DNA from: Escherichia coli
GTDB taxonomy: Bacteria; Pseudomonadota; Gammaproteobacteria; Enterobacterales; Enterobacteriaceae
DNA length: 64,000 bases
Direction: 5' to 3' (one strand)
Assembly (NCBI RefSeq): GCF_050920415.1
Contig: NZ_CP169309.1
Of this stretch, positions 14,693 through 59,775 are shown piece after piece; position 1 is the stretch's first letter; the number at the start of each line of letters is the position of its first letter. Position numbers and translations under genes: made by a program. The notes under the pieces were generated by a model, which saw nothing but the letters and a program-made list of their open reading frames with translations, made no database searches and had not been told where the DNA came from.

Positions 14693-15387
14693 TGCAGATC
14701 CTCAAAGTGATCGGCCTGTTGATGGAGTACCCGGACGAGCTGTTGTGGGAGTGTAAGGACGACGCGCTGGCATTAATCCGCCGCGACGCGTCGATGCTCA
14801 CCGATTTTGCACTCGACCTGCTCAACGCGCCGCTGCTGGATAAACAGGCCGAATGGTGTGAAGTGTTCGACCGCGGGCGCACCACGTCGCTGCTGCTGTT
14901 CGAACATGTTCATGCCGAATCCCGCGATCGAGGCCAGGCAATGGTGGACCTGCTGGCGGAGTACGAAAAGGTCGGTCTGCAACTGGATTGTCGGGAACTG
15001 CCCGATTATCTGCCGCTGTACCTGGAGTACTTAAGTGTGCTGCCGGACGATCAGGCAAAAGAAGGATTACTCAACGTTGCGCCGATCCTCGCCCTGCTTG
15101 GCGGACGCTTAAAACAACGCGAGACACCGTGGTACGCGTTATTTGACGCCCTTTTGCAACTGGCAGGAAGTCCCCTGTCAAGTGACAGTGTCACAAAACA
15201 AATTCGTAGTGAAGAGCGTGACGACACCCGCCAGGCGCTGGATGCGGTGTGGGAAGAAGAACAGGTGAAGTTTATTGAAGATAACGCCACGGCGTGTGAC
15301 AGCTCGCCGCTTAATCAATATCAGCGACGCTTTAGCCAGGATGTCGCGCCGCAGTACGTCGACATCAGTGCGGGAGGTGGGAAATGA
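14692..15387 (+). CDS. narW: Nitrate reductase Z assembly chaperone (delta)
   Basis: 231-aa ORF between beta and gamma subunits; TAATG overlap with narY. Confidence 0.9.
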
Positions 15388-16064
15388 TTCAGTATCTGAA
15401 CGTCTTTTTTTACGATATCTACCCGTACATTTGTGCGACGGTGTTTTTCCTTGGCAGCTGGCTGCGCTATGACTACGGGCAGTACACCTGGCGCGCCTCC
15501 TCGAGCCAGATGCTCGATAAACGCGGGATGGTGATATGGTCGAATCTGTTCCATATCGGCATTTTGGGGATCTTCTTCGGGCACCTGTTCGGCATGTTAA
15601 CGCCGCACTGGATGTACGCGTGGTTTTTGCCAGTGGCAGCGAAACAACTAATGGCGATGGTGCTCGGCGGTATTTGCGGCGTGTTGACGTTGATTGGCGG
15701 TGCAGGACTGCTGTGGCGCAGGCTGACAAATCAGCGTGTGCGTGCTACTTCCACCACGCCGGATATCATCATCATGAGCATATTGCTGATCCAATGTTTG
15801 TTGGGGCTAAGTACCATACCGTTTTCAGCACAGTATCCTGATGGTAGCGAAATGATGAAACTGGTGGGGTGGGCGCAAAGTATCGTCACTTTCCGTGGAG
15901 GATCGTCAGAAATGCTTAACGGCGTAGCGTTCGTCTTCCGCCTGCATCTGGTATTGGGAATGACCATCTTCCTGCTCTTTCCGTTCACCCGACTGGTGCA
16001 TGTGTGGAGCGCGCCGTTTGAGTACTTTACTCGTCGGTATCAGATTGTGCGTTCGCGGCGATAA
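15384..16064 (+). CDS. narV: Respiratory nitrate reductase Z, gamma subunit (cytochrome b)
   Basis: 226-aa polytopic membrane ORF; ATGA overlap with narW. Confidence 0.9.
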
Positions 16065-16143
16065 TTCTCCCCCTGGCCGGATAGTCCTTCGCTCTCCGGC
16101 CACTTGCAGGCTATGATAGTTCTCCAGCCACAGGAGAACGTTA

Positions 16144-17037
16144 ATGAAACCGCAGGTTTATCACGTCGATGCTTTTACCGCTCAACCGTTTCGCGGCAAT
16201 TCTGCCGGTGTTGTTTTTCCCGCCGATAAACTTAGCGAAGCGCAAATGCAGCTTATCGCCCGCGAATTAGGTCATTCGGAAACTGCTTTTCTGCTGCACA
16301 GCGACGACAGCGATGTACACGTTCGATACTTTACGCCAACGGTTGAAGTGCCAATTTGCGGTCACGCAACGGTGGCTGCGCACTATGTACGTTCAAAGGT
16401 ATTAGGTTTGGGAAATTGCACGGTATGGCAAACGTCGCTGGCAGGAAAACATCGCGTGACTATCGAAAAGCACAACGATGATTATCGTATTTCGCTGGAA
16501 CAAGGTACGCCAGGCTTTGAGCCACCGCTGGAAGGTGAAACACGTGCAGCGATTATCAACGCGCTTCATCTCACTGAAGACGATATTCTGCCAGGCTTGC
16601 CAATTCAGGTGGCAACCACAGGACACTCAAAAGTGATGATCCCGTTGAAACCAGAAGTGGATATCGACGCTCTTTCGCCTGACCTTGCTGCGCTGACCGC
16701 AATCAGCAAGCAGATTGGCTGCAATGGTTTTTTCCCGTTCCAGATCCGCCCTGGCAAAAATGAAACCGATGGTCGCATGTTCTCACCTGCGATTGGTATT
16801 GTGGAAGATCCGGTGACCGGGAATGCCAATGGCCCGATGGGCGCATGGTTGGTACATCACAACTTACTACCCCACGATGGCAGCGTGTTGCGTGTTAAAG
16901 GCCATCAGGGGCGCGCACTGGGGCGTGACGGCGTGATTGATGTGACGGTGACAATTCGAGATAACCAACCGGAGAAAGTCACCATTTCTGGCACAGCGGT
17001 GATTCTTTTCCATGCTGAATGGGCCATTGATTTTTGA
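16144..17037 (+). CDS. yddE: PhzF-family isomerase-like protein
   Basis: 297-aa ORF MKPQVYHVDAFTAQPFRGNSAGVVF..., conserved position after narV. Confidence 0.8.
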   Translation: MKPQVYHVDAFTAQPFRGNSAGVVFPADKLSEAQMQLIARELGHSETAFLLHSDDSDVHVRYFTPTVEVPICGHATVAAHYVRSKVLGLGNCTVWQTSLAGKHRVTIEKHNDDYRISLEQGTPGFEPPLEGETRAAIINALHLTEDDILPGLPIQVATTGHSKVMIPLKPEVDIDALSPDLAALTAISKQIGCNGFFPFQIRPGKNETDGRMFSPAIGIVEDPVTGNANGPMGAWLVHHNLLPHDGSVLRVKGHQGRALGRDGVIDVTVTIRDNQPEKVTISGTAVILFHAEWAIDF

Positions 17038-17044
17038 TACCGTT

Positions 17045-17120
17045 GCCTGATGCGCTTCGCTTATCAGGCCTACAACCGGGCTAATGTGGGCCGGTTGTAG
17101 GCGTTTACGCCGCATCCGGC
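17045..17120. repeat. BIME: two inverted REP elements between yddE and nhoA
   Basis: GCCTGATGCGCTTCGCTTATCAGGCCTACAACCGG ... CCGGTTGTAGGCGTTTACGCCGCATCCGGC read directly. Confidence 0.65.
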
Positions 17121-17132
17121 CCCTGGCACAAA

Positions 17133-17978
17133 CTATTTCCCCGCCTCCGGATGCGTATCAAACGCCGCCATCACCAACGCCAGTTCATCCACAGTAAAGC
17201 CATGCTTTGCGTCATCTACGCCCAGACCAAACTGCTCCTGCATCACGGCATATAACGACGCCACATCCGCTAGATTCCGCTGCTCCACTGCATGTCCATT
17301 TTCATAATGGGTGAAATGAAAATTGGTCAGTGTCAGTTTGCCACCGTCCGGCAAATGGCGGCACATCAGCAAATGATGGCGAAAATGCGATTGCGGCCAG
17401 TGCGCCGACCAGAAATTCCCCATCACATAATCACTTTGTTGTTGTTCACAGAGATCAAAACGGTACATCGACTGCCAGTGCTGATGATGATTAAACTGCA
17501 AAATCCAGTCGTTCCCTTCCTGTAACAGCCGATATTCGCCATGTGGCGTTGTTTGCGCGATATCCGCCACTAAACGAATCGGCGCAGTCAAAGTCTGCCC
17601 ACCGAAACCGACATCGGCAATCCAGTGTTCGCCTTCCAGCTCCACCAACAACAAACGATGGGTACGCGGCGGTAATGCTGGCGGATTAGATAACACTACG
17701 CGCCCTAACAGACTGCGTACCTGAAAACCCAGCTCGCGTAACACCCGCTCAAACACGCCATTCTGCTCAAAGCAGTAACCACCACGCCGGGCGAGCACCA
17801 ATTTCTCTTCCAGCGATTGATCATCAAGCTGCATTTCTCTCGGCAGCAAAACATCGAGATTTTCAAATGGAATGGTGCAATTGTGTTTCAGGTGTAATGC
17901 GCGCAGCGTTTCGATATTGACCGCAGCCGCTCCCGACCAGTTAATGCGGGTAAAATAGTGATTCAGAATGGGCGTCAT
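17133..17978 (-). CDS. nhoA: N-hydroxyarylamine O-acetyltransferase
   Basis: 281-aa ORF MTPILNHYFTRINWSGAAAVNIETLRALHLKH... with the arylamine N-acetyltransferase Cys context (RGGYCFEQN). Confidence 0.9.
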   Translation of the reverse strand: MTPILNHYFTRINWSGAAAVNIETLRALHLKHNCTIPFENLDVLLPREMQLDDQSLEEKLVLARRGGYCFEQNGVFERVLRELGFQVRSLLGRVVLSNPPALPPRTHRLLLVELEGEHWIADVGFGGQTLTAPIRLVADIAQTTPHGEYRLLQEGNDWILQFNHHQHWQSMYRFDLCEQQQSDYVMGNFWSAHWPQSHFRHHLLMCRHLPDGGKLTLTNFHFTHYENGHAVEQRNLADVASLYAVMQEQFGLGVDDAKHGFTVDELALVMAAFDTHPEAGK

Positions 17979-18152
17979 CAGGCGTTTCCGTTTGTGGTTT
18001 TCTCAATTTATAACCTGGAATAGACGCCGCACCGGCTATTTTGTGCGATCGCGGACATGCATCACGTTCGCAAATCGCCAATCCCGTTAATTTCGTTACT
18101 TATTGCGTTACGAGCTACGCTTTTAAAACACCCTTCTTAGCGAGGCGATACC

Positions 18153-18722
18153 GTGAGCCGATTCATCCCCGTCGAATTACACCATGCCAGCCGTCTGTTA
18201 AACCACGGCCCCACAGTTTTGATAACAACTTTTGATGAAAAATCACAGCGACGTAATGTGATGGCTGCGGCCTGGTCGATGCCGGTGGAGTTTGAACCGC
18301 CACGTGTGGCGATTGTGGTAGATAAATCGACATGGACCAGGGAGTTGATTGAGCGTAACGGTAAATTTGGCATCGTTATCCCGGGCGTTGCGGCGACTAA
18401 CTGGACGTGGGCGGTGGGAAGTGTGTCGGGTCGTGAAGAAGATAAATTTAATTGCTATGGCATTCCGGTTGTGAAAGGTCCGGTGCTTGGATTGCCGCTG
18501 GTTGAAGAGAAATGTCTGGCATGGATGGAGTGTCGATTGCTACCAGCGACTTCTGCGCAAGAAAAATACGATACGCTATTTGGCGAAGTGGTATCGGCAG
18601 CGGCAGACGCACGAGTATTTGTCGAAGGCCGCTGGCAGTTTGATGATGACAAACTCAATACACTACATCATTTAGGTGCTGGCACGTTTGTTACCAGCGG
18701 CAAGCGAGTTGCCGCTGGTTAA
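18153..18722 (+). CDS. yddH: Flavin reductase-like domain protein
   Basis: 189-aa ORF, conserved neighbour of nhoA. Confidence 0.8.
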   Translation: MSRFIPVELHHASRLLNHGPTVLITTFDEKSQRRNVMAAAWSMPVEFEPPRVAIVVDKSTWTRELIERNGKFGIVIPGVAATNWTWAVGSVSGREEDKFNCYGIPVVKGPVLGLPLVEEKCLAWMECRLLPATSAQEKYDTLFGEVVSAAADARVFVEGRWQFDDDKLNTLHHLGAGTFVTSGKRVAAG

Positions 18723-18760
18723 AGAGAGAGCGTTCAGAATTCTGTGTGACGTTAAAAATT

Positions 18761-19156
18761 CTACAGCGTCATCACATTATTCAGCCGCCCTTCAAAATAA
18801 ATAGCTAACTGTGACAATGTCAAATTCCAGCTCTGAACTGGCATTGTCCATTTTTTCTGCGCATTCATCAGTCCCAGGTAAAGTAGCTTCAACAGGCTGT
18901 TTTCATTCGGGAAGGCACCTTTTGTTTTGGTCAGCTTTCTGAACTGCCGGTGAACTGACTCGATAGCATTGGTCGTGTAAATCACCTTACGGATACCCGC
19001 CGGATAACGGAAGTAATGCGACAGATTTTCCCATTTTCGCCGCCACGACTGAAGCACCACCGGATACTGCTGACCCCATTTCGCCTCCAGCTCGTCCAGC
19101 GCTGTTTCTGCCGCCTCCTTCGATACCGCACGGTACACCGGTTTCAGGTCGGCCAT
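18761..19156 (-). pseudogene. IS256-family (mutator-type) transposase, C-terminal fragment only
   Basis: 131-aa ORF with the family C-terminal signature ...IYTTNAIESVHRQFRKLTKTKGAFPNENSLLKLLYLGL...KKWTMPVQSWN...; the N-terminal ~270 aa are missing and the fragment abuts the ISAs1 ORF. Confidence 0.7.
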
Positions 19157-19159
19157 GAG

Positions 19160-20400
19160 CCAGGGAAAGATTACGAAAGCCCGCTCCCCGCAAGGACTGA
19201 CGCCAGATACTTTCTGTCCATGGCTGCTTTTCGCATCTTACGTCTTAACCCTGCCTTGAATACCTTATCATTCGTCAAAATATTAATAGCGATGTGCCGT
19301 ATCCCTGAAAATAATTCTGCTGCATTTCCTCTTCTTATTTTGCAGTCGTCTTCATTCATTACCACGTCCAGACGCCAGTGCAGCTTATTCTCCACGTGCC
19401 AGTGATTTCGGATCGCTGTGGCGAACTTCTCTGCGGTTAAATCAGCAGAACTGATATAATATCTGACCGTCATTTCTGGCTCTTTCTTTTGTTCTGCTAT
19501 TATTGACCGAAAGGAGACTGCCACGCATAATTTCTTCAGACCTTTCCATTCAAACGTGAAATCAATAAGTTCATCAGGGACATCGCAAACAATATGAAGA
19601 CGGATTTCTTCTCTGCCGTGACTCTTTTCACTAATTGCGTAACTGTCATGCTCTGGATTATTTAATTCTTTCAGCGGAAATTTTTCCTCGAAGGCTTTAT
19701 TTAGCCGCCCCTGGTTTCCTTTTACAGCGAATAAATAATCACCTCCCTGTTTTTGTATCTTCTCTGCAATATCTTTCTGGCAACCCATCGCATCAGTTGT
19801 GATGATTTTTCCTTTAATATCCAGCATGTTAAGAAGTTCTGGGATAGCTGTAATCTCATTGGATTTCTCATCCGTCTTGATCTGTCCGATGACCAGACTG
19901 TGCATTGTTGAGAACGCACTAATGACATGAATCGCTCCCCTGCGGCGACTCTTGTCATAAGAGTGCCGGAGCGTTTTTCCATCAATTGCAATGACGTCTT
20001 TATCATCTGAAGAATGACATTCACGCATCCGGTTAATAAAGCATTCGTGAAATTTTGCAGGACTGATACATGATACAACTCTGGCAATAGTATCGTGAAC
20101 AGGAATACCATTTTCAAAATCACCATATTGCTTCAAAAAATCGAGATGAGTTTCCCCGAAATCCTCTATATCTTCCCAGCCTTCTGCACCCGAAATAACG
20201 GCGCAAATAGTCAACAGTAGAATATCCGATAATTTATGCTCCACTTTCCAGGCTTGTCTGTAATCGGGGATAATAGAAATATGTTCCATCAATTTTTTAA
20301 GTTCCATTTTGTTCTCCTTAATTATGTAAGGAGTATTTGATCATGTATAAGCAATAAAAAACAGCTTCAGGTAATGAGGAATATCTCAATTTTTAAACAT
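19160..20400 (-). mobile_element. ISAs1-family (H-repeat) element; ends not resolved
   Basis: Inferred from the transposase ORF; terminal inverted repeats were not identified by eye. Confidence 0.45.
19171..20307 (-). CDS. ISAs1-family transposase (H-repeat-associated protein, YdcC-like), intact
   Basis: 378-aa [65 protein letters not shown]...; matches the H-repeat protein family. Confidence 0.85.
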
Positions 20401-20476
20401 AAAATGCGAATTGTTTAGTACAAAAAAGCAGCGTTAAGTGAGTAGGCCACCGGAACCTCCCCGACAGCCTCTCGCA

Positions 20477-20510
20477 GAACCGTACGTGAAACTCTCGCTT
20501 CATACGGCTC
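20477..20510 (-). ncRNA. Group II intron domain V (catalytic hairpin)
   Basis: Minus strand reads GAGCCGTATGAAGCGAGAGTTTCACGTACGGTTC: AGC triad, GAGA GNRA loop, flanking GAGC/GTTC helix. Confidence 0.8.
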
Positions 20511-20513
20511 CCG

Positions 20514-21836
20514 TCAGGCAAACGCGCTTCCTGGTCCTGCTTTCCAGTGGGCAAACAACTCCGGCTTCTCTTTTGACAGTCTTTCCATTAGCTGACACGC
20601 CTTCGTCTTTCTATACCACAGGGTTTTATATTTCTTTCTCGCCCACGCAATCAGCGTCAGATTAATATATCTGCATACTTTCTTCATCGCTGATTTGTGG
20701 TATCTCGCGTAATAATTCAGCCACCCCGATATTATCAGATTCAGCCACTTCGCAATATCTTCGAGACTCATCTCCACCCTGCGTCTGATCCACAGTTTCC
20801 TGAGTTTTCCAATCATGCCTTTCTGCGCACGGTTACTCGCCGCCGGGCTGAAACTCGTAAAGAGGTTTCCCCGCCGGTGGTTACGTGCTCTTCGCGCTCT
20901 GAACGTATACCCCAGAAAATCAAACTGCACTGTTTCATGGTTCGCCTGTCGTTCGCTGTCTTTGCAGTAAACTATTTTCGTTTTCTCCGGATGTAATTCC
21001 AGTCCACATTCCTGAAAACGTTTTGCCAGCTTATTCAGTAATTCCTCTGCCTGTTGTTTACTGCCACAATGAATTAATCCATCATCTGCATAACGGCACC
21101 AGGGAATTTCCGGATAATGTAACGTCAGCCATTTATCAAACACATAGTGCAGAAATAAATTCGCCAGTACCGGGCTGATGACTCCACCCTGTGGCGTACC
21201 TTTATTTCTTTCCTTCAGTGTTCCATCCGGCATCTGCACCGGCGCTGTCAGCCAGCGGCGAATAGACAGTCTTACCCATTTATCCGCACAATGTTTATCT
21301 ACTGCCCTGAGTAATAAATCGTGGGGGATATTATCGAATAACCCTTTAATATCAAACTCAAGACACCAGTCGTATTGCCAGCAACGTTTTCTGGTGACTG
21401 CTATTGCATCCAGCGCTGATTTTCCATGCCGGTATCCGTATGAATCATTCAGGAAATAACGCTCCACTAATGGTTCAAACGTTACCAGCACCGTCATCTG
21501 CGCTATTCTATCGCTTACTGTCGGTATTCCTAAAAGTCTTTTGCTGCCATCCTTCTTCGGAATTTCCACCGCACGCACTGGCGGCGGCATCCAGCTTCCC
21601 GACGATAACCTGTTCCAGATTTTGTACAGATTTCCTTTCAGATCCCGCTCAAAATCTTTCAGCGTCTGGTTATCCACTCCGGCAGCTCCGGCATTCGCCT
21701 TTATCCGCCGGTACGCTTCCACCACATGCAATTTACTGACCTGAAACGGTTTTGTCTGTTCACACACAGTCTCCTCCTGCCTACAGTTGGGCTGTGATGC
21801 AGACTGCCCGACGCTGTCCCTTCGCTCCACGTTCAT
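20514..21836 (-). CDS. Group II intron reverse transcriptase/maturase, no endonuclease domain
   Basis: Track ORF 20514..22031; RT domain 0 at LHVVEAYRRIKANAGAAGVDNQT, fingers GTPQGGVISPVLANLFL, palm WCRYADDGLIHCGS (YADD), C-terminal X/maturase-like block GWLNYYARYH; likely start near MNVERRDSV. Confidence 0.85.
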   Translation of the reverse strand: MNVERRDSVGQSASQPNCRQEETVCEQTKPFQVSKLHVVEAYRRIKANAGAAGVDNQTLKDFERDLKGNLYKIWNRLSSGSWMPPPVRAVEIPKKDGSKRLLGIPTVSDRIAQMTVLVTFEPLVERYFLNDSYGYRHGKSALDAIAVTRKRCWQYDWCLEFDIKGLFDNIPHDLLLRAVDKHCADKWVRLSIRRWLTAPVQMPDGTLKERNKGTPQGGVISPVLANLFLHYVFDKWLTLHYPEIPWCRYADDGLIHCGSKQQAEELLNKLAKRFQECGLELHPEKTKIVYCKDSERQANHETVQFDFLGYTFRARRARNHRRGNLFTSFSPAASNRAQKGMIGKLRKLWIRRRVEMSLEDIAKWLNLIISGWLNYYARYHKSAMKKVCRYINLTLIAWARKKYKTLWYRKTKACQLMERLSKEKPELFAHWKAGPGSAFA

Positions 21837-22398
21837 TACAAACGCTTCCTCACTACTACGAACAGCTCTGCCCCGGTTTCGCACATCGATACTCTCATAC
21901 TCATAATTTCGGTTATTTGTAATTCTCTCTTGACATTGCGACGACCGGTTCCCGTAGTTCCTGCAAAGAGCCCGATACAGCGTCATGCCTGCTATACACC
22001 GGACATCATTCACGCAGCATTCGGAATTCACCCGTAAATTAATCCCGGCGGTATCACGAAACCTCCGGTTTTGATGTCACTTAGGACTAACGACGTTTCA
22101 ACACAGGTTCGGGTTTACTCATCTCACTGTATCTCACATAGGATCAGATCTCGTCTGATCGTTCCCCCTGCGCTCACTACCATGGCTCTTTACCACAGCA
22201 GCCGGGGTTGTTTGGGACCGACTTCCGACAGCAGATCCCGGTGGGCCTGCCACCATCTCTTCACAAGCTTATGCTTATTACATGCAAAACGTCCCGTTTT
22301 GCATCTTTGTGCCTACGGCACACCGTGATCTTTCCCTGGGAATAAAAGAAAGTTCACTGTAGTTATTAATGATATTTACTTCTTCATTCATATTTTAC

Positions 22399-22788
22399 CT
22401 ATTTAGAAAAACATATGCTCGCTTCCTCCGTGATAGAGATAACATAATCAGGTATTATTTCAAATACAGGAGTAATTAAGTATGGTCTGGAGTAACCATT
22501 ATTAAAATCCACACTATCAACTAAAAAACTAATAATGCTATCTTTGTCAGAAACAATCAATGATTCTCGGTAATAAGTTTTTTTACCTTTATTTCTCACA
22601 ATATTCAGTGCAATGTAGAATCTATCGTCTATCATAATGTCAGAAAGATTTTTAACATGATCTACCCAAGTGATGCTTCGACATTGCTCTTTTTTATTGA
22701 GCATTGCAAAAAAAATATCTTCTTTCACTTTCTCACTTGGTAACTGACTTAAAGGTTTTATACCTGTAAATATAAATTTAGTTTTCAT
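22399..22788 (-). CDS. Hypothetical protein, AT-rich orphan ORF (129 aa)
   Basis: Open frame in strongly AT-rich DNA (stop codons are AT-rich, so long ORFs here are non-random); no recognisable motif. Confidence 0.5.
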   Translation of the reverse strand: MKTKFIFTGIKPLSQLPSEKVKEDIFFAMLNKKEQCRSITWVDHVKNLSDIMIDDRFYIALNIVRNKGKKTYYRESLIVSDKDSIISFLVDSVDFNNGYSRPYLITPVFEIIPDYVISITEEASICFSK

Positions 22789-22818
22789 ATTGGCTAATTC
22801 GTTTGAAGAGTTGCTACT

Positions 22819-23241
22819 TTATTCAATCCAGTAAGCTAGTCGCTCTCCAGAACTTAGATTTTCCCTTTTGTAATAAAATACCGTATCGAAATTAAGTGAA
22901 ATGTTTGCCGCTATAACTTTAAACTGTAATATTGACTCGGAATAAAACTCGAGAATAATATTAGCATCATTATCATCGTTAATTATTTTTAGTTTCATAA
23001 AATCATCAAGAGGATCACAAGTCCAGTGCGTATCACCACTCATGTAAGATGGTGCATTTATTATTATTTCAAAATTATGATAGTACGAAAGATCACTACT
23101 GCCAACGATAATTAATCGCCCATTACTATAGAGATAAATTTCAAAATCTATCCAACAGTTATTTCTGTAATTACGCCTAATTTCGTCCACTACATTTTGT
23201 TGTTTCATTTTGGATTCTTGTAAAAGATAATTACTACGCAT
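22819..23241 (-). CDS. Hypothetical protein, AT-rich orphan ORF (140 aa; alternative start MKQQNVVDEIRR near 23208)
   Basis: Co-directional with neighbours; no recognisable motif. Confidence 0.5.
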   Translation of the reverse strand: MRSNYLLQESKMKQQNVVDEIRRNYRNNCWIDFEIYLYSNGRLIIVGSSDLSYYHNFEIIINAPSYMSGDTHWTCDPLDDFMKLKIINDDNDANIILEFYSESILQFKVIAANISLNFDTVFYYKRENLSSGERLAYWIE

Positions 23242-23285
23242 TGACTAAGTGAAATATTATCTTCTATAGATCGTATCTGTAAAAT

Positions 23286-23618
23286 TTAAAATGTGTTAAC
23301 TTCACTTCTTAATAATACAAATTCCTCCAGGCTTAATATTTTATTTTTTAATTCATCATGCCTGATCGTATCATTGATATAGAGAAGATAAGTATACTCA
23401 GGATAATCGACCTCATCCACTACGCCATCCAAAACATCATAATTTTCTTTTAGAAGAAAATGTTCATGTCTTTTGTCTCCGGGCAATAAATAGATTCCGC
23501 CATAATAAAGGCTTTCTTTCTCTTTAAATGTGATTTTTATCAGATCTTCTAACATCTTCTGCGCATCATATATTTCCACCCCATAATATCCATACAAGTC
23601 ATAATAACCCATTCCCAT
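23286..23618 (-). CDS. Hypothetical acidic protein, AT-rich orphan ORF (110 aa)
   Basis: Tyr/Glu/Asp-rich small protein; no recognisable motif. Confidence 0.45.
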   Translation of the reverse strand: MGMGYYDLYGYYGVEIYDAQKMLEDLIKITFKEKESLYYGGIYLLPGDKRHEHFLLKENYDVLDGVVDEVDYPEYTYLLYINDTIRHDELKNKILSLEEFVLLRSEVNTF

Positions 23619-23639
23619 TTCACCTGTTTGAATTTGTAT

Positions 23640-23840
23640 TCATTCACCCTCACGGGATTTACCAATTACATTCAGCAGTGGCATTAAATGTAATGTTACA
23701 AAACTATCACATCTTTCCTGAATTATCATTTGGATATAATGTTTTGTGTCATTGCTACCATATTCAGCCATATAGAATATTACTGCGTCCATTATATCTC
23801 TTTCATAGTTTTCTAATGCATCAACAAATACATCAACCAA
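23640..23840 (-). CDS. Hypothetical protein (66 aa, TTG start), possibly the 3' remnant of a gene disrupted upstream
   Basis: Short ORF lying 120 bp from the IS2 left end; low confidence. Confidence 0.35.
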   Translation of the reverse strand: MVDVFVDALENYERDIMDAVIFYMAEYGSNDTKHYIQMIIQERCDSFVTLHLMPLLNVIGKSREGE

Positions 23841-24050
23841 AGTATTAACGTCTTTACTTGATGGATGCTCTGAAAGATTATTTTCATTTGTGAGAATCTG
23901 AATCGTACCATTACGATTCTCTTAGAAATATCATTAAATACGCTACCGCCCTACCCTGATAGACTGGCCCCCTGAATCTCCAGACAACCAGTATCACTTA
24001 AATAAGTGATAGTCTTAATACTAGTTTTTAGACTAGTCATTGGAGAACAG

Positions 24051-24416
24051 ATGATTGATGTCTTAGGGCCGGAGAAACGCAGACGGCGTACCACACAGGA
24101 AAAGATCGCAATTGTTCAGCAGAGCTTTGAACCGGGGATGACGGTCTCCCTCGTTGCCCGGCAACATGGTGTAGCAGCCAGCCAGTTATTTCTCTGGCGT
24201 AAGCAATACCAGGAAGGAAGTCTTACTGCTGTCGCCGCCGGAGAACAGGTTGTTCCTGCCTCTGAACTTGCTGCCGCCATGAAGCAGATTAAAGAACTCC
24301 AGCGCCTGCTCGGCAAGAAAACGATGGAAAATGAACTCCTCAAAGAAGCCGTTGAATATGGACGGGCAAAAAAGTGGATAGCGCACGCGCCCTTATTGCC
24401 CGGGGATGGGGAGTAA
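24051..24416 (+). CDS. insC: IS2 transposase OrfA
   Basis: [56 protein letters not shown]... Confidence 0.95.
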
Positions 24417-25279
24417 GCTTAGTCAGCCGTTGTCTCCGGGTGTCGCGTGCGCAGTTGCACGTCATTCTCAGACGAACCGATGACTGGATGGATGGCCGCC
24501 GCAGTCGTCACACTGATGATACGGATGTGCTTCTCCGTATACACCATGTTATCGGAGAGCTGCCCACGTATGGTTATCGTCGGGTATGGGCGCTGCTTCG
24601 CAGACAGGCAGAACTTGATGGTATGCCTGCGATCAATGCCAAACGTGTTTACCGGATCATGCGCCAGAATGCGCTGTTGCTTGAGCGAAAACCTGCTGTA
24701 CCGCCATCGAAACGGGCACATACAGGCAGAGTGGCCGTGAAAGAAAGCAATCAGCGATGGTGCTCTGACGGGTTCGAGTTCTGCTGTGATAACGGAGAGA
24801 GACTGCGTGTCACGTTCGCGCTGGACTGCTGTGATCGTGAGGCACTGCACTGGGCGGTGACTACTGGCGGCTTCAACAGTGAAACAGTACAGGACGTCAT
24901 GCTGGGAGCGGTGGAACGCCGCTTCGGCAACGATCTTCCGTCGTCTCCAGTGGAGTGGCTGACGGATAATGGTTCATGCTACCGGGCTAATGAAACACGC
25001 CAGTTCGCCCGGATGTTGGGACTTGAACCGAAGAACACGGCGGTGCGGAGTCCGGAGAGTAACGGAATAGCAGAGAGCTTCGTGAAAACGATAAAGCGTG
25101 ACTACATCAGTATCATGCCCAAACCAGACGGGTTAACGGCAGCAAAGAACCTTGCAGAGGCGTTCGAGCATTATAACGAATGGCATCCGCATAGTGCGCT
25201 GGGTTATCGCTCGCCACGGGAATATCTGCGGCAGCGGGCTTGTAATGGGTTAAGTGATAACAGATGTCTGGAAATATAG
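24374..25279 (+). CDS. insD: IS2 transposase OrfB (DDE integrase domain)
   Basis: 301-aa [37 protein letters not shown]... overlapping insC in the -1 frame, as in IS3-family elements. Confidence 0.95.
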
Positions 25280-25513
25280 GGGCAAATCCACCTGATAACA
25301 TGATCTGCACTGCGTTATCATATCGACATGTTTCTCTATATGCGAAGAGATGTTTTATTTTCGGATTAAATTAAATTGATATTCAATATAAAATACAGAA
25401 TCACATCAGCGACATAAATAGTTGTAACAACTTCAATTACCATTCATAGCAAACAAATAGACGTCCAGTTAACTTTGCCGATGATTTATTAACATTAATC
25501 TCCGGCATTGTTG

Positions 25514-26131
25514 TTAAATAATGGCATTCCTTTTTAGTACTTCTTGTAACTTTGGTATCTGACATACAGCATCAGCAATCGCACTGATATTCGTGGCATT
25601 ATCCTGAAACCATTCATGCCCAGGCCCCCATGTGCGCATTGTGCAAAGATAACAGTCCACCAGCGTGAGTTGCTCTCCAAACACATACGGTTCAGCAGTC
25701 AATTGTGAATTCAGCCAGATATAAAGCGATTTGCGATATTCAATAACATTCTTCTTCAACTGTTCAGGTGCGTCGGGGACCCAACGTTCAGGGTAATCGG
25801 CGAAGGTAAACGTTGGATAGACATTAGCGACCAGCCAGACCAATAGCCGTTGAAACTGCTGACGTTCGGCACGCCCAACTGGTGGCGCAAGATCCGGGCT
25901 GCGGTCGAGCACCATTAGCGCAATAGCCGCGCTTTCGGTCATAATCTCGCCATTTTCCAGCGCCAGTGTCGGAACCTGACATAGCGGATTGAGCTTTTGC
26001 AATAGCTCACGCGCAATACCTTCACTGTCAAAACCGCTGACATCAACAAACTTATAGGGAATATCTGCCAGCGTAAGCATGAGTTCGCTGATTGTAGAAC
26101 CCCATCCCGGCACGCCATACATCTTTAACAT
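25514..26131 (-). CDS. yncG: Glutathione S-transferase-like protein
   Basis: 205-aa ORF MLKMYGVPGWGSTISELMLTLADIPYKFVDV... Confidence 0.8.
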   Translation of the reverse strand: MLKMYGVPGWGSTISELMLTLADIPYKFVDVSGFDSEGIARELLQKLNPLCQVPTLALENGEIMTESAAIALMVLDRSPDLAPPVGRAERQQFQRLLVWLVANVYPTFTFADYPERWVPDAPEQLKKNVIEYRKSLYIWLNSQLTAEPYVFGEQLTLVDCYLCTMRTWGPGHEWFQDNATNISAIADAVCQIPKLQEVLKRNAII

Positions 26132-26413
26132 AGCGCCTCCAAAACGCCTAAAAGCTTAAGTGTAGAACACCCATTTCACACGGCGTTGAGGGGCCAGAAG
26201 CGCCTTTCTGACTCTTTTATAACCACACACCTGAATTACCCCCCTAATTTATATGGTTATTTTTTGCATCGTTTCCCGAATGAAGGTAGGATTCTGCGCC
26301 GACAGACATATACCCATAAAGAATAACGGTTAGCGCTGTCATAGTTACCGTGAATAAAGAATGTATTTGTGGTAACGAGAAACGTTAATTCATGAAGATC
26401 ATCAGGGAGCGCA

Positions 26414-27913
26414 ATGAGATCACATAACAACGACGTAACTGATCAACACGCCGCGAAACGCCGCTGGCTTAATGCCCACGAAGAGGGGTATCACAAAGCG
26501 ATGGGCAATCGCCAGGTACAGATGATCGCCATTGGCGGCGCGATTGGCACCGGCTTGTTTTTAGGTGCAGGAGCCCGACTGCAAATGGCGGGGCCAGCAC
26601 TGGCACTGGTCTATTTAATCTGCGGCCTGTTTTCATTTTTTATTCTGCGTGCATTGGGTGAGCTGGTGCTACACCGCCCTTCCAGTGGCAGTTTTGTCTC
26701 TTATGCCCGTGAGTTTTTAGGAGAGAAAGCCGCTTACGTTGCAGGCTGGATGTACTTCATCAACTGGGCGATGACGGGGATTGTCGATATTACCGCCGTC
26801 GCTCTGTATATGCATTACTGGGGTGCGTTTGGCGGCGTGCCGCAGTGGGTCTTTGCGCTCGCTGCGCTGACCATCGTTGGCACCATGAATATGATTGGTG
26901 TGAAATGGTTTGCGGAGATGGAGTTCTGGTTTGCGCTTATTAAAGTGCTCGCCATCGTGACCTTTTTGGTCGTGGGTACAGTGTTCCTCGGTAGCGGTCA
27001 GCCGCTGGATGGCAACACCACTGGCTTTCATTTAATTACCGATAATGGCGGCTTCTTCCCCCACGGTTTACTGCCTGCGCTGGTATTGATTCAGGGCGTA
27101 GTGTTTGCTTTTGCCTCTATTGAAATGGTTGGAACAGCTGCCGGAGAATGTAAAGATCCGCAGACCATGGTGCCTAAAGCCATTAACAGTGTGATTTGGC
27201 GTATTGGCCTGTTTTACGTCGGCTCCGTGGTGTTGCTGGTTATGTTATTACCGTGGAGCGCGTATCAGGCGGGGCAAAGTCCGTTCGTGACGTTTTTCTC
27301 TAAACTGGGCGTGCCTTACATCGGCAGCATTATGAACATTGTGGTACTGACTGCTGCCCTCTCCAGCCTGAACTCAGGTCTGTACTGCACCGGGCGTATT
27401 CTGCGCTCAATGGCGATGGGCGGCTCTGCACCAAGTTTCATGGCGAAAATGAGTCGTCAGCATGTGCCGTATGCCGGGATCCTGGCGACGCTGGTCGTTT
27501 ATGTTGTTGGCGTATTCCTTAACTATCTGGTGCCGTCGCGCGTATTTGAGATTGTGTTGAACTTCGCGTCGCTGGGAATCATCGCTTCATGGGCGTTTAT
27601 CATCGTGTGCCAGATGCGCCTGCGTAAAGCGATTAAAGAAGGCAAAGCAGCGGATGTCAGTTTTAAACTCCCAGGTGCGCCCTTTACGTCGTGGCTGACA
27701 TTACTGTTTTTACTGAGCGTCCTGGTGCTGATGGCGTTCGATTACCCGAACGGGACTTATACCATCGCTGCGCTGCCGATTATTGGCCTTCTGCTGGTTG
27801 TAGGTTGGTTTGGTGTGCGCAAACGCGTTGCAGAAATACACAGCACTGCGCCAGTCGTCGAGGAAGATGAAGAAAAACAGGAAATTGTGTTTAAGCCTGA
27901 AACGGCGAGCTAA
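26414..27913 (+). CDS. ansP: L-asparagine permease (APC family)
   Basis: 499-aa ORF ...KRRWLNAHEEGYHKAMGNRQVQMIAIGGAIGTGLFLGAG... Confidence 0.9.
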   Translation: MRSHNNDVTDQHAAKRRWLNAHEEGYHKAMGNRQVQMIAIGGAIGTGLFLGAGARLQMAGPALALVYLICGLFSFFILRALGELVLHRPSSGSFVSYAREFLGEKAAYVAGWMYFINWAMTGIVDITAVALYMHYWGAFGGVPQWVFALAALTIVGTMNMIGVKWFAEMEFWFALIKVLAIVTFLVVGTVFLGSGQPLDGNTTGFHLITDNGGFFPHGLLPALVLIQGVVFAFASIEMVGTAAGECKDPQTMVPKAINSVIWRIGLFYVGSVVLLVMLLPWSAYQAGQSPFVTFFSKLGVPYIGSIMNIVVLTAALSSLNSGLYCTGRILRSMAMGGSAPSFMAKMSRQHVPYAGILATLVVYVVGVFLNYLVPSRVFEIVLNFASLGIIASWAFIIVCQMRLRKAIKEGKAADVSFKLPGAPFTSWLTLLFLLSVLVLMAFDYPNGTYTIAALPIIGLLLVVGWFGVRKRVAEIHSTAPVVEEDEEKQEIVFKPETAS

Positions 27914-27923
27914 TTGCAAAATT

Positions 27924-27948
27924 GCCCGGCTACGTGCCGGGCAAATTT
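27924..27948. terminator. Probable bidirectional terminator between ansP and yncE
   Basis: GCCCGGCTACGTGCCGGGC hairpin flanked by A/T runs on both strands. Confidence 0.4.
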
Positions 27949-28027
27949 AGATTACTGACGAAGGTGTGCCGCATGCGGCGTGATAAAAGTCAGGCAAGTC
28001 TCTCCGTTTTCACCCTCGCCATATCTA

Positions 28028-29089
28028 TTACAGCGCAATACGAATCACATCGTCTGGCTGGGTAGCTTCCTGCTGTTTAGTGGATTTTTGTTTCACACTG
28101 ACATACAGCGTTTTGCCATCGGCAGACAGCGCCAGGCTGTTTGGATGAGTCGGCGTATCGAACGTTTTCACCACTTTATAGCTTTTCGCGTCAATCACAC
28201 TGACTTTACCTGCCTGACGATGCGTTACGTAGGCTTCATTACGCGCTGGGTTAAACAGCACAGCCAGTGATTCCGGTGCCGCAACCTTCGCCAGAATATT
28301 GCCATTACGGGTATCGACCACTAGCACTTCTGCCGCTTTAGAATCGGTGATAAATGCACGCTGCCTGGCGGTATCGAGGCTGATGTTGATAAAGAAGTGC
28401 TCTTTGCCATCATCCAGCAGCTTTTTACGGCTGAGGATTTTATTGTCGGCGGTGTCGATGGTAATCAATTCACCATCGGCATTAGTGGTGTAAAGACGTT
28501 TGCCTTTGCTATCCAGCGCCAGACCGGTACTCATTTTACCGGTGTTCTGGATGGCGGTTTTCAGTTTGATATTCTCGCCATCAACGACCCAAATCACGCT
28601 CTCTTTACCAATACCACTGATGTAAACGGTGTTCGTGGCATCATCAGCTACCAGCTCACGCGGTTGCAGCGGGCGCACCTCTTCCGTGCGCTTACGATCA
28701 TCCAGCACCAGACGGCCTTTCACTTCGCCCGTTTTGGCATCTATCGCCGTGACCGCGCTGTTTACGGTGTTACCAAACCACAACGTCTGAGTCGTGTTAT
28801 TGATGGTGGCACCAAACGGCTTGAGATCGTTATGGATCGCCTGAGTTACCTCCAGAGTGACCGGATCGAGACGATAAACCACCCCGCCTTTATCCAGTTT
28901 GCGGCTTTGTGAAGTAGCGAGCCACAGCGCGTTTTCCTGCTGGCTATAAGCCATTTCGTAGGCACCTTTACCTACCGCTTTACGCAGCATTTCTTCTGCG
29001 GCCTGCGTACTGAATGATGAAGCAATAAGCAATGAACCTAACAGTAATGAACCACGCAGGCGCGATGAAAACAGATGACGTAAATGCAT
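28028..29089 (-). CDS. yncE: PQQ-like beta-propeller protein with signal peptide
   Basis: 353-aa ORF MHLRHLFSSRLRGSLLLGSLLIASSFSTQAAEE... Confidence 0.85.
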   Translation of the reverse strand: MHLRHLFSSRLRGSLLLGSLLIASSFSTQAAEEMLRKAVGKGAYEMAYSQQENALWLATSQSRKLDKGGVVYRLDPVTLEVTQAIHNDLKPFGATINNTTQTLWFGNTVNSAVTAIDAKTGEVKGRLVLDDRKRTEEVRPLQPRELVADDATNTVYISGIGKESVIWVVDGENIKLKTAIQNTGKMSTGLALDSKGKRLYTTNADGELITIDTADNKILSRKKLLDDGKEHFFINISLDTARQRAFITDSKAAEVLVVDTRNGNILAKVAAPESLAVLFNPARNEAYVTHRQAGKVSVIDAKSYKVVKTFDTPTHPNSLALSADGKTLYVSVKQKSTKQQEATQPDDVIRIAL

Positions 29090-29330
29090 GACGACTCCCT
29101 TTGATGAACCGATATTTTTGCTGCTTCACAATGCTTCGCTAAGCGTAATCATCGTTACGCTCTTGTTATAAATGGGAATGGTAATCATTATTTTCTCAAA
29201 TGTGGAGCATTTCTTGCCGTTACGACTACAATTTTCTCAATTACTTAACGTATTGTGCCGTTTCATTTTCCATAAATTTACAATTTCATTACCATGACGG
29301 CGTTTTCCCATTCTTAACCTGGCTTTTTTC

Positions 29331-59710: not shown

Positions 59711-59775
59711 CTTCCGATGTAGGCCCGTATTCTTCGCCTGTACCACGGGTCGGTTTTAGTACAGGCGTTTTCTTT
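59711..59775 (+). ncRNA. rydC: RydC Hfq-dependent small RNA
   Basis: CTTCCGATGTAGGCCCGTATTCTTCGCCTGTACCACGGGTCGGTTTTAGTACAGGCGTTTTCTT matches remembered RydC, including the terminator hairpin CGCCTGTAC...GTACAGGCG plus U-run. Confidence 0.75.

Follow-up and report, generated by a model that had tools for sequence, protein, structure and literature searches.

Organization of the locus

The window (the whole 64,000-nucleotide stretch of Escherichia coli DNA that was analysed) contains on its minus strand, from 22323 to 20437, a complete and intact group II intron of 1887 nt, which is of the E.c.I9 type and belongs to class D (IIB3). It sits inside a copy of the ISAs1-family element ISEc1, 16 bp from the left tip of the IS. 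The host element comprises the following features:

22324-22339, minus strand: left terminal inverted repeat of ISEc1, CCAGGGAAAGATCACG, which acts as the 5' exon
19160-20436, minus strand: the rest of ISEc1, which forms the 3' exon (upstream region, transposase ydcC and right inverted repeat)
20307-19171, minus strand: transposase ydcC (NF033564 ISAs1 transposase, 410 bits; RefSeq annotation of a 100%-identical locus)
19175-19160, minus strand: right inverted repeat of ISEc1, reading CCAGGGAAAGAUUACG on the plus strand
Predicted exon junction: CCAGGGAAAGAUCACG|UAACGCUGC

The left inverted repeat is complementary to 19160-19175 at 15 of 16 positions, and it is at this repeat that the similarity between independent copies begins. 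The sequence-only reading had recognized the ISAs1 transposase next to the intron; the IS is real, but the intron lies inside ISEc1 and not merely upstream of its transposase. For annotation this means that the 3.18-kb block from 19160 to 22339 is a single IS with a single intron in it, and that the Rhs locus where it lies is degraded. The IS-rich setting noticed earlier is borne out by ISEc1 itself, an IS256-family fragment and IS2, and the window contains no further homing sites or IS ends besides the two inverted repeats of the single ISEc1. ISEc1 is the Rhs-associated 'H-repeat' element; a literature search pairing 'H-rpt' with group II introns gave no hits.

The intron ends were set by alignment to unoccupied ISEc1 sites (CCAGGGAAAGATCACG|TAACGCTGC), the uninterrupted sequence being present in thousands of genomes and fixing the 3' splice site. 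This comparison with the empty site, which had been suggested as a check together with the earlier estimate of 22325-20440, shows that estimate to be off by 2-3 nt. Over its 1887 nt the intron is 96.13% identical, with zero gaps, to the reference copy of E.c.I9 in E. coli ATCC 8739 (CP000946, 2411599-2413485). As the group II intron database gives one name to introns with >95% nucleotide identity (rule quoted in PMC3552965), the name E.c.I9 applies. E.c.I9 is listed as a class D intron of 1887 nt in the Rhs region (PMC3522654 supplements; PMC3552965 Table S1), and its target is the IS associated with Rhs elements, ISEc1, where it uses a different site from E.c.I2 (PMC3522654). The junction in the window, where the left inverted repeat ends on its inner side, is likewise identical to that of ATCC 8739. 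The intron is thus not new in itself: its identity, class and target IS are already known, and it is an ordinary representative of its kind, whose ORF carries the RefSeq label ltrA. The Rfam and protein matches are far beyond chance, and the sequence-only reading of the element as a group II intron is right apart from small corrections. We consider it very likely that the locus as a whole represents a full-length E.c.I9 copy, inserted in sense orientation at a degraded RhsE/ydcC locus, with the 16-bp left inverted repeat of ISEc1 on one side and the remainder of the IS on the other, and that it would operate by the mechanism proposed below. Anatomy, identity, insertion site, EBS1-IBS1 pairing and distribution are established by the sequence comparisons; transcription, splicing and present-day mobility are inferred.

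Structure of the ribozyme and its target pairing

The elements of the intron, in the order of transcription, are as follows (domains I-III follow the consensus structure that RNAalifold gives for six class D introns):

22324-22329, minus strand: IBS1, AUCACG, the final six nucleotides of the 5' exon
22319-22323, minus strand: 5' splice-site consensus GUGUG, read directly from the sequence
21952-22318, minus strand: domain I, with the closing helix 22318-22313 paired with 21957-21952
22083-22086, minus strand: candidate EBS2, UCCU (tentative), in a loop homologous to the AUGAA loop of an RmInt1-like intron
22045-22068, minus strand: EBS1 hairpin, with EBS1 (CGUGAU) at 22058-22053 within a 10-nt loop
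21873-21948, minus strand: predicted domain II, consensus helices 14-16 (14 of 19 pairs with compensatory changes)
21838-21871, minus strand: predicted domain III, consensus helices 17-18, with approximate limits, the alignment stopping at 21837
20514-21836, minus strand: reverse transcriptase/maturase ORF in domain IV, 440 aa from ATG 21836 (RefSeq model)
20477-20510, minus strand: domain V, 34 nt, with AGC triad, 2-nt bulge and GAGA tetraloop (RF00029 alignment and fold)
20440-20473, minus strand: domain VI, with a single bulged branch-point A at 20443 (RF00029 and fold)

The covariance models proposed earlier as a check recognize both ends of the ribozyme: RF01999 (group-II-D1D4-2) matches its 5' part at 22254-22137 with 93.1 bits (gathering cut-off 36), a match that the window intron has in common with four other class D-like introns, and RF00029 (domains V/VI) matches 20512-20437 with 62.8 bits (gathering cut-off 40). 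The consensus of domains I-III contains 121 pairs, 69 of them with changes on both sides; 93.5% of its cells are paired, versus 39-43% for slid partners, and none of 500 shuffles was as good. A relative on a Citrobacter plasmid was excluded from the structure alignment, because its 5' ribozyme is missing, cut by IS26. Domain V (GAGCCGUAUGAAGCGAGAGUUUCACGUACGGUUC) begins three nucleotides past the stop of the ORF, with the triad and loop already noticed from the sequence, and shows compensatory changes relative to E.c.I2. The segment 20512-20437 folds with -36 kcal/mol (z = -3.4) into canonical domains V and VI, in which the bulged A at 20443, the predicted branch point, lies 7 nt from the intron's last nucleotide side (3' end 20437, counted as the first). 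The penultimate nucleotide of the intron is C (…CACU) rather than the usual A, and E.c.I2 is alike in this respect.

At the 5' end, a GUGYG/GUGUU sequence is conserved in six class D introns, and the GUGUG of the window lies 487 nt 5' of ATG 21836, in agreement with the distance of about 490 nt given at the outset. EBS1 and IBS1 form six Watson-Crick pairs. This perfect match, for which five class D introns show covariation, fixes the 5' splice site, one of the verifications that had been called for. In E.c.I2 and in the RmInt1-like, B. thuringiensis and Bradyrhizobium introns the homologous loop can pair with the intron's own 5' exon over 6-8 bp, and the EBS1 stem (helix 12) itself shows compensatory changes. 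The candidate EBS2 (22086-22083) forms only 4 bp, with AGGG at exon positions -14 to -11, and shuffled loops equal this 56% of the time. Automated searches for EBS2 in three and then six introns, using either the aligned column or a loose position, gave nothing consistent, and neither EBS2 nor EBS3 can be identified above chance in the intron.

The intron-encoded protein

The ORF lies uninterrupted between domains III and V, ends in TGA at 20516-20514 and carries the segments RIKANAGAAGVDNQT, GTPQGGVISPVLANLFL and WCRYADDGLIHCGS. Its product combines a reverse transcriptase domain (Pfam RVT_1, 4.9e-42) with a maturase domain (GIIM, 2.5e-11), and scores 424.8 bits with the group II intron model TIGR04416 (cut-off 300). 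YADD and all reverse transcriptase blocks are conserved, whereas Pfam detects no HNH or other C-terminal domain, the protein stopping about 33 residues past the GIIM match; this is the architecture that the sequence-only reading had described. That reading took ATG 21836 as the start, and while its ORF stands, the true start is probably GTG 21767 (417 aa). This codon is preceded by AGGAGG at 21778-21773 and corresponds in the alignment to the start codon ATG of E.c.I2; relatives conserve the stretch upstream of it, GUAAUGG..GGAGCGAAGGG, as a non-coding part of the ribozyme.

Class D proteins are defined by the presence of the RT and X domains only, without a DNA-binding/endonuclease region (PMC3552965, PMC3035460), which is the composition of the protein in the window. 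They also bear a C-terminal motif, LX3AX3PXLF[V/A]HW (PMC4615759). The tail in the window, M-ERL-S-KEK-P-E-L-F-A-H-W, has the exact core PELFAHW and agrees at six of the eight fixed positions, the remaining two being conservative changes (L to M and A to S); the E.c.I2 and RmInt1-like proteins match the motif fully. In comparison with the ATCC 8739 allele the dN/dS ratio is 0.25, which places the ORF under purifying selection.

Distribution and decay

Of 5426 complete E. coli genomes, 83 contain a full-length copy, and about 2500 retain just 5' stumps. The widespread stumps measure 97, 159 and 193 nt; in those other genomes ISEc1 copies sit inside the intron, so that every stump stops at a new IS terminus. 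Extinction dynamics have been described (PMC3522654). Copies at least 99.2% identical occupy the same IS position in different contexts, namely the RhsE remnant, an Rhs locus next to yiiX-metJ, and vgrG/PAAR islands. This presence of near-identical copies in several Rhs/T6SS loci fits recent mobility, and together with the intactness of all its parts suggests that the intron may still be mobile. The same distribution could have arisen by transposition of ISEc1 or by recombination between Rhs loci, and as all copies lie at the identical IS position, retrohoming and hitch-hiking leave the same pattern. The ATCC-type allele occurs at one orthologous locus only. In two near-identical copies elsewhere the ORF is broken, by a stop codon in one (L006) and by a frameshift in the other (L010), which indicates that decay is under way in the intron family. 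A plasmid copy in TOK-001 might have been taken as a sign of horizontal spread; it was rejected and excluded from the independent insertions, as it duplicates the chromosomal pptA-yddH-nhoA segment and encodes the same protein.

Proposed mechanism

Transcription of the intron would start either at the upstream ORFs, which have the same orientation and could be read through, or at a promoter within the AT-rich DNA ahead of it, where a scan for consensus promoters gave many AT-rich matches and no assignable promoter. The reverse transcriptase/maturase would be translated from domain IV and bind its own RNA, and splicing via the branch A at 20443 would yield a lariat-protein particle. Such a particle could locate unoccupied left ends of ISEc1, mainly through pairing of EBS1 with AUCACG, and reverse-splice into the DNA. 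Because the protein lacks an endonuclease domain, the cDNA is predicted to be primed by the nascent DNA strand at the replication fork, as shown experimentally for RmInt1/RmInt2; by analogy with these introns, endonuclease-independent retrohoming is the likely pathway. The GC skew of the plus strand of the window is negative in 6 of 8 blocks, which would weakly suggest that the intron lies on the leading-strand sequence, the orientation preferred by RmInt1/RmInt2-type introns. As the insertion leaves the two ends of the IS and its transposase gene intact, the intron could also ride passively with the IS.

Alternative explanations

The alternative of most weight, to which we give appreciable though minority credence, is that the intron is a structurally intact but immobile relic, which reached its several loci by ISEc1 transposition or by recombination or gene conversion among Rhs-associated ISEc1 copies. 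The intact inverted repeats and transposase ORF are in its favor, as the 3.18-kb composite could move whole, and so are the invariant IS position of all copies, the confinement of the ATCC-type allele to one locus, the copies with a disrupted ORF, and the fact that most genomes have stumps only, as in the published extinction dynamics (PMC3522654). Against it are the purifying selection on the ORF, the intactness of all catalytic elements, and the perfect match of EBS1 to the target in the multi-locus allele family as opposed to its mismatch in the single-locus allele; moreover, related IS-borne class D introns are experimentally mobile (PMC3035460, PMC4615759). One could go further and regard the window allele, with its perfect EBS1-IBS1 match, as a currently active E.c.I9 lineage, ATCC 8739 as a single-locus fossil with a disabled EBS1, and the intron and ISEc1 as engaged in reciprocal conflict, the intron homing into the IS inverted repeat and ISEc1 copies lodging in the intron, a proposal that we put forward tentatively and think rather unlikely.

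Two other classifications of the element have a negligible probability. The reverse transcriptase might in principle derive from a retron, a DGR or a defence-associated system, but the models for these reach only sub-threshold scores of the sort that any reverse transcriptase would give (Drt3a 78 bits versus a cut-off of 200, Drt2 59.5 versus 390, and retron St85 54 versus 235). The best matches among solved structures are group II intron reverse transcriptases, of which LtrA is a weaker one, and the ORF is flanked by ribozyme domains confirmed by Rfam; with the TIGR04416 score and the GIIM domain, this refutes such an origin and settles the class of the enzyme, a point flagged earlier for verification, as a group II maturase. 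It is just as improbable that the intron is a differently named one, either E.c.I2, with which it has the host IS, class and RF01999 match in common, or a class C intron of the type that inserts after terminators. Identity to E.c.I2 is just 71% at the nucleotide and 60% at the protein level. E.c.I2 resides within the transposase ORF, and the window has nothing inserted at the corresponding point (between 19365 and 19364). The intron in the window is not preceded by a terminator, and what its EBS1 recognizes is the IS inverted repeat. The empty E.c.I2 site and the match to E.c.I9 refute this assignment.

The intron is therefore best described as E.c.I9. The family, with its class and target IS, has already been published, as has its reduction to short stumps across E. 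coli. The understanding of such elements is unchanged, and the additions made here are small: a precise placement of the intron where the left inverted repeat meets the IS interior, a probable correction of the start codon, and an allele whose EBS1 matches the target, unlike that of the reference. They may help in choosing a functional E.c.I9 for mobility studies or for endonuclease-free gene targeting in E. coli. If active, it would be a native, endonuclease-free intron of E. coli aimed at a transposon terminus.

Comparison with known introns

The E.c.I9 copy of ATCC 8739 has the same length, boundaries and insertion point after CAGGGrAAGAUCACG, and lies in the same chromosomal neighborhood (RhsE / yddH-nhoA). 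It differs from the window intron by 73 substitutions, with 94% protein identity, and its EBS1 loop reads CAUGAUGAUA instead of UUUCGUGAUA, a change by which pairing is lost at exon positions -1 and -2. The 3' exon also differs from +1 to +10 (TAACGCTGCT versus AGAAGTACAC), and the ISEc1 that follows, complete in the window, is truncated in ATCC 8739.

E.c.I2 (X77508), which is found in Rhs elements within the transposase ORF of their ISEc1, is of the same class and RT-X architecture, uses the same host IS family, matches both RF01999 and RF00029, and has the same unusual 3' end (…CUCACY). Apart from its sequence divergence, it differs in being inserted about 940 bp deeper into the IS, where it splits the transposase gene, and in its EBS1, which reads CGUCCAG in place of CGUGAU.

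Ll.LtrB of Lactococcus lactis, a IIA intron and the textbook example of a mobile one, follows the same general logic of a ribozyme with a reverse transcriptase/maturase in domain IV and a target chosen by EBS/IBS pairing. Its protein LtrA possesses DNA-binding and endonuclease domains, and its cDNA is primed from the cleaved bottom strand; the protein in the window, in contrast, ends after the maturase domain and a short tail.

RmInt1 and RmInt2 of Sinorhizobium meliloti have other IS families and another host; their splicing, lagging-strand-primed retrohoming and EBS2/EBS3 pairings have been demonstrated, whereas splicing and such retrohoming are predicted for the window intron, in which UCCU is a tentative EBS2. 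Class D introns have no D/En domains and use the nascent lagging strand (PMC3035460). The window intron shares with RmInt1/RmInt2 an RT-X protein devoid of DNA-binding/endonuclease domains, a C-terminal tail resembling the class D motif, residence in an IS and the ribozyme family. Over its whole length its protein has 56% identity to an RmInt1-like protein of S. meliloti (419 aa), including the PxLF(A/V)HW tail. Like RmInt2, which targets IS inverted repeats (PMC4615759), the window intron has an IS inverted repeat as its target.

Identity and ends of the intron

The complete group II intron, its parts and the predicted domains of its ribozyme, obtained by mapping the consensus structure described below to the window, are as follows.

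22323-20437, minus: complete group II intron, 1887 nt, GUGUG…CUCACU
22318-21952, minus: domain I, predicted
22254-22137, minus: RF01999 (group-II-D1D4-2), Rfam, 93.1 bits
22058-22053, minus: EBS1, CGUGAU, in the loop of hairpin 22068-22045
21948-21873, minus: domain II, predicted
about 21871-21838, minus: domain III, predicted
20512-20437, minus: RF00029 (domains V/VI), Rfam, 62.8 bits
20510-20477, minus: domain V, beginning three nucleotides past the stop codon

An Rfam scan at the gathering threshold, rerun with permissive filters, gave two intron matches on the minus strand, RF01999 and RF00029. To fix the ends we joined both flanks and queried them against 5426 complete E. coli genomes; the uninterrupted site, lying within ISAs1-family elements, has a median copy number of five per genome. 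The alignment of two empty sites, with the junction CCAGGGAAAGATCACG/TAACGCTGC, sets the ends at 22323 and 20437. The 76-nt 3' piece (z = -3.4) folds into a domain V with a 2-nt bulge and a GAGA loop, and a domain VI with one bulged A at 20443, seven nucleotides before the intron end. The 3' end of E.c.I2, the other class D intron of the insertion sequence ISEc1, is …CUCACC when compared with its empty site, the window's own transposase gene; given this parallel to …CUCACU, the unusual penultimate C is a family trait rather than damage. The exact vacant E.c.I2 homing site is at 19349-19380 (minus) in the transposase gene ydcC, with its junction at 19365/19364 (…CUGGACG/UGGUAAUG…).

RefSeq annotates the intron ORF as ltrA, and the intron is ungapped, 96.13% identical and joined at the identical junction relative to the ATCC 8739 copy of E.c.I9. 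That copy is listed as class D, RT-X, 1887 nt by Toro and Martínez-Abarca (Table S1; PMC3552965), while Leclercq and Cordaux describe E.c.I9 as a class D intron targeting the Rhs-associated IS at a position other than that of E.c.I2 (PMC3522654). The intron is thus the catalogued E.c.I9 at its catalogued target, and is already known. Full-length copies are found in 83 of the 5426 genomes, 5' stumps of 193 and 159 nt in roughly 2500, and E.c.I2, a 71%-identical relative, in 169; the distribution of full-length copies and stumps reproduces the published picture.

The sequence-only reading had correctly recognized a group II intron with a reverse transcriptase, and all the motifs it quoted are present, including domain V three nucleotides past the stop. 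Its proposed extent, 20440-22325, was right in location and off by two to three bases at the ends. The covariance models, both above the gathering threshold, and the abundant uninterrupted alleles, which fix the ends, bear it out.

The intron-encoded protein

The ORF between the RF01999 and RF00029 matches is uninterrupted and scores 424.8 bits against TIGR04416 (NCBIfam, "group II intron reverse transcriptase/maturase"; cut-off 300). Retron and Drt reverse transcriptase models score far below their own cut-offs. Pfam detects RVT_1 together with the GIIM maturase domain, and no further domain C-terminal of these, in agreement with the reported lack of an endonuclease tail, and the closest solved structures are group II intron reverse transcriptases. 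The protein is 94% identical to that of ATCC 8739, 60% to that of E.c.I2 and 56% to a 419-aa S. meliloti protein, and the alignment with these reaches the very C-terminus. The aligned region takes in PELFAHW, which corresponds to the core of the published class D signature LX3AX3PXLF[V/A]HW (PMC4615759); the first two fixed positions of that signature are conservatively replaced. A dN/dS of 0.25 against the ATCC 8739 allele indicates that the protein has been under purifying selection.

RefSeq places the start at ATG 21836 (440 aa), but the sequence from this ATG (GUAAUGG..GGAGCGAAGGG) is conserved non-coding ribozyme in E.c.I2 and other relatives, whose ORFs begin a few nucleotides past a conserved AGGAGG. 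The equivalent codon in the window is GTG 21767, five nucleotides past AGGAGG (21778-21773), giving 417 aa; as the reference allele lacks this in-frame GTG, the start codon is uncertain.

Ribozyme structure

The structural alignment covered the 5' parts (490-560 nt) of six introns: those of the window and ATCC 8739, E.c.I2, and introns of S. meliloti (RmInt1-like), B. thuringiensis and Bradyrhizobium. RF01999 confirmed all of them in their own loci except the two E.c.I9 copies, which are 96.1% identical to each other. The RNAalifold consensus has 121 pairs, 69 of which hold through changes on both sides in an independent pair count. Among alignment cells 93.5% are paired in that count; sliding the 3' partners by one to three columns lowers the figure to 39-43%, and none of 500 shuffles matched the observed covariation. 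In S. meliloti pSymA the RmInt1-like intron (1031-2910) is followed after about 6 nt, from 2917 onward, by a different group II intron, which matches RF02005 (D1D4-6) and carries a separate ltrA; their arrangement is either tandem or nested.

Host element and neighbourhood

The 16 nt upstream of the intron (22339-22324) are complementary at 15 of 16 positions to 19160-19175, the only two such inverted-repeat sequences in the window. Since the ISAs1 transposase gene ydcC (NF033564, 410 bits) lies between these repeats, 19160-22339 is a single ISEc1, 1293 bp without the intron. The association with an ISAs1 transposase had been noticed, but the intron lies inside the IS rather than beside it, at the precise boundary of left inverted repeat and interior, leaving both ends and the transposase gene undamaged. 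The description of an IS-rich scar is fair, with ISEc1, an IS256-family fragment and IS2 around the intron.

18761-19156, minus: IS256-family transposase, C-terminal third, adjoining the right end of ISEc1
22399-23840, minus: four small co-oriented ORFs (129, 140, 110 and 66 aa), 29-35% G+C
~23962-25290: complete IS2 (TnpA 275.8 bits, TnpB 727.6 bits; inverted repeats 23969-24001 and 25250-25282)
1749-1807, minus: selenocysteine insertion element SECIS_3, Rfam 84.3 bits, an ordinary E. coli chromosomal feature
59711-59774, plus: small RNA RydC, Rfam 90.5 bits, likewise ordinary

The locus is the degraded RhsE locus (its K-12 name), flanked by narZ…yddE-nhoA-yddH and, at its opposite end, by yncG. 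No Rhs core is left here, and the four small ORFs have no NCBIfam match; they resemble orphan Rhs toxin/immunity-type cassettes, because Rhs core tips with small downstream ORFs occupy the equivalent position in other strains. Strain MFDS1022581 matches 15000-30000 at 99.9-99.99% identity and lacks IS2, which, as the sole large difference, is a recent insertion. Missing here is pptA, which other strains, ATCC 8739 among them, have between ydcC and yddH. In E. coli TOK-001 the chromosomal intron-pptA-yddH-nhoA segment recurs on pECTOK-001_1, a 219-kb conjugative plasmid; the proteins encoded by the plasmid copy are identical to those of the chromosome, and the copy is either a captured chromosomal segment or an assembly artefact.

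Target recognition and mobility

EBS1 (CGUGAU) is perfectly complementary to AUCACG, the six nucleotides that close the 5' exon. In four other introns the homologous loop likewise pairs with the respective 5' exon, over 7 (E.c.I2), 8 (RmInt1-like), 8 (B. thuringiensis) and 7 (Bradyrhizobium) nucleotides, always terminating at exon -1; EBS1 and the 5' splice site are therefore confirmed by covariation. The best EBS2 candidate, of 4 bp, is at chance level, and no EBS3 was identified above chance. The ATCC 8739-type loop, GAUGAU (CAUGAUGAUA at the equivalent of 22061-22052, also in L011-L013), cannot pair at exon -1 and -2, and a 589-nt stump (L006) bears the same loop. Judged by this pairing, the reference E.c.I9 may be a disabled allele.

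Stumps of 159, 193, 97 and 589 nt occur respectively in BL21 (L015, 2985-3175), O55:H7 (L014, 2975-3215), L008 (2890-3016) and L006 (243-845). Each of the first three runs straight into the left end of a fresh ISEc1 (CAGGGAAAGATCACG/TAACG…). In L008 a complete second intron comes after that end; in L014 two stacked partial left ends precede the stump. Called merely "fragments" in the published survey (PMC3522654), the widespread stumps are not simple truncations; they read as the outcome of two steps, a co-oriented ISEc1 insertion into a copy of the intron and then a deletion between the two direct IS repeats.

Three points speak against mobility: the intron could be carried passively by the IS, two close relatives have a broken ORF, and most genomes retain stumps alone. 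In favour, all its catalytic and coding elements are intact, and copies of at least 99.2% identity, every one carrying the matching EBS1, occupy the same IS position behind differing upstream DNA: the RhsE remnant (window, L001), an Rhs core by yiiX-metJ (L007), vgrG/PAAR islands (L008, L009) and, in L006, a further vgrG fragment. The full-length ATCC-type allele with mismatched EBS1 is seen at the RhsE locus only. The intactness and the near-identical copies behind different DNA support the suggestion that the intron may still be mobile.

RmInt1 and RmInt2 are class D introns without an endonuclease domain that reside in IS elements (PMC3035460, PMC4615759). By analogy, the intron would reverse-splice into its target, with cDNA then primed from the nascent lagging strand; the GC skew of the window, as weak evidence, places it in the orientation preferred by RmInt1/RmInt2. 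The ISEc1 right inverted repeat, read on the plus strand at 19160-19175, is CCAGGGAAAGAUUACG, and EBS1 would pair with its last six nucleotides with one G·U wobble; no occupied example of this site was seen. RmInt2 targets IS inverted repeats (PMC4615759), and the right inverted repeat of ISEc1 could similarly be a second, antisense target.
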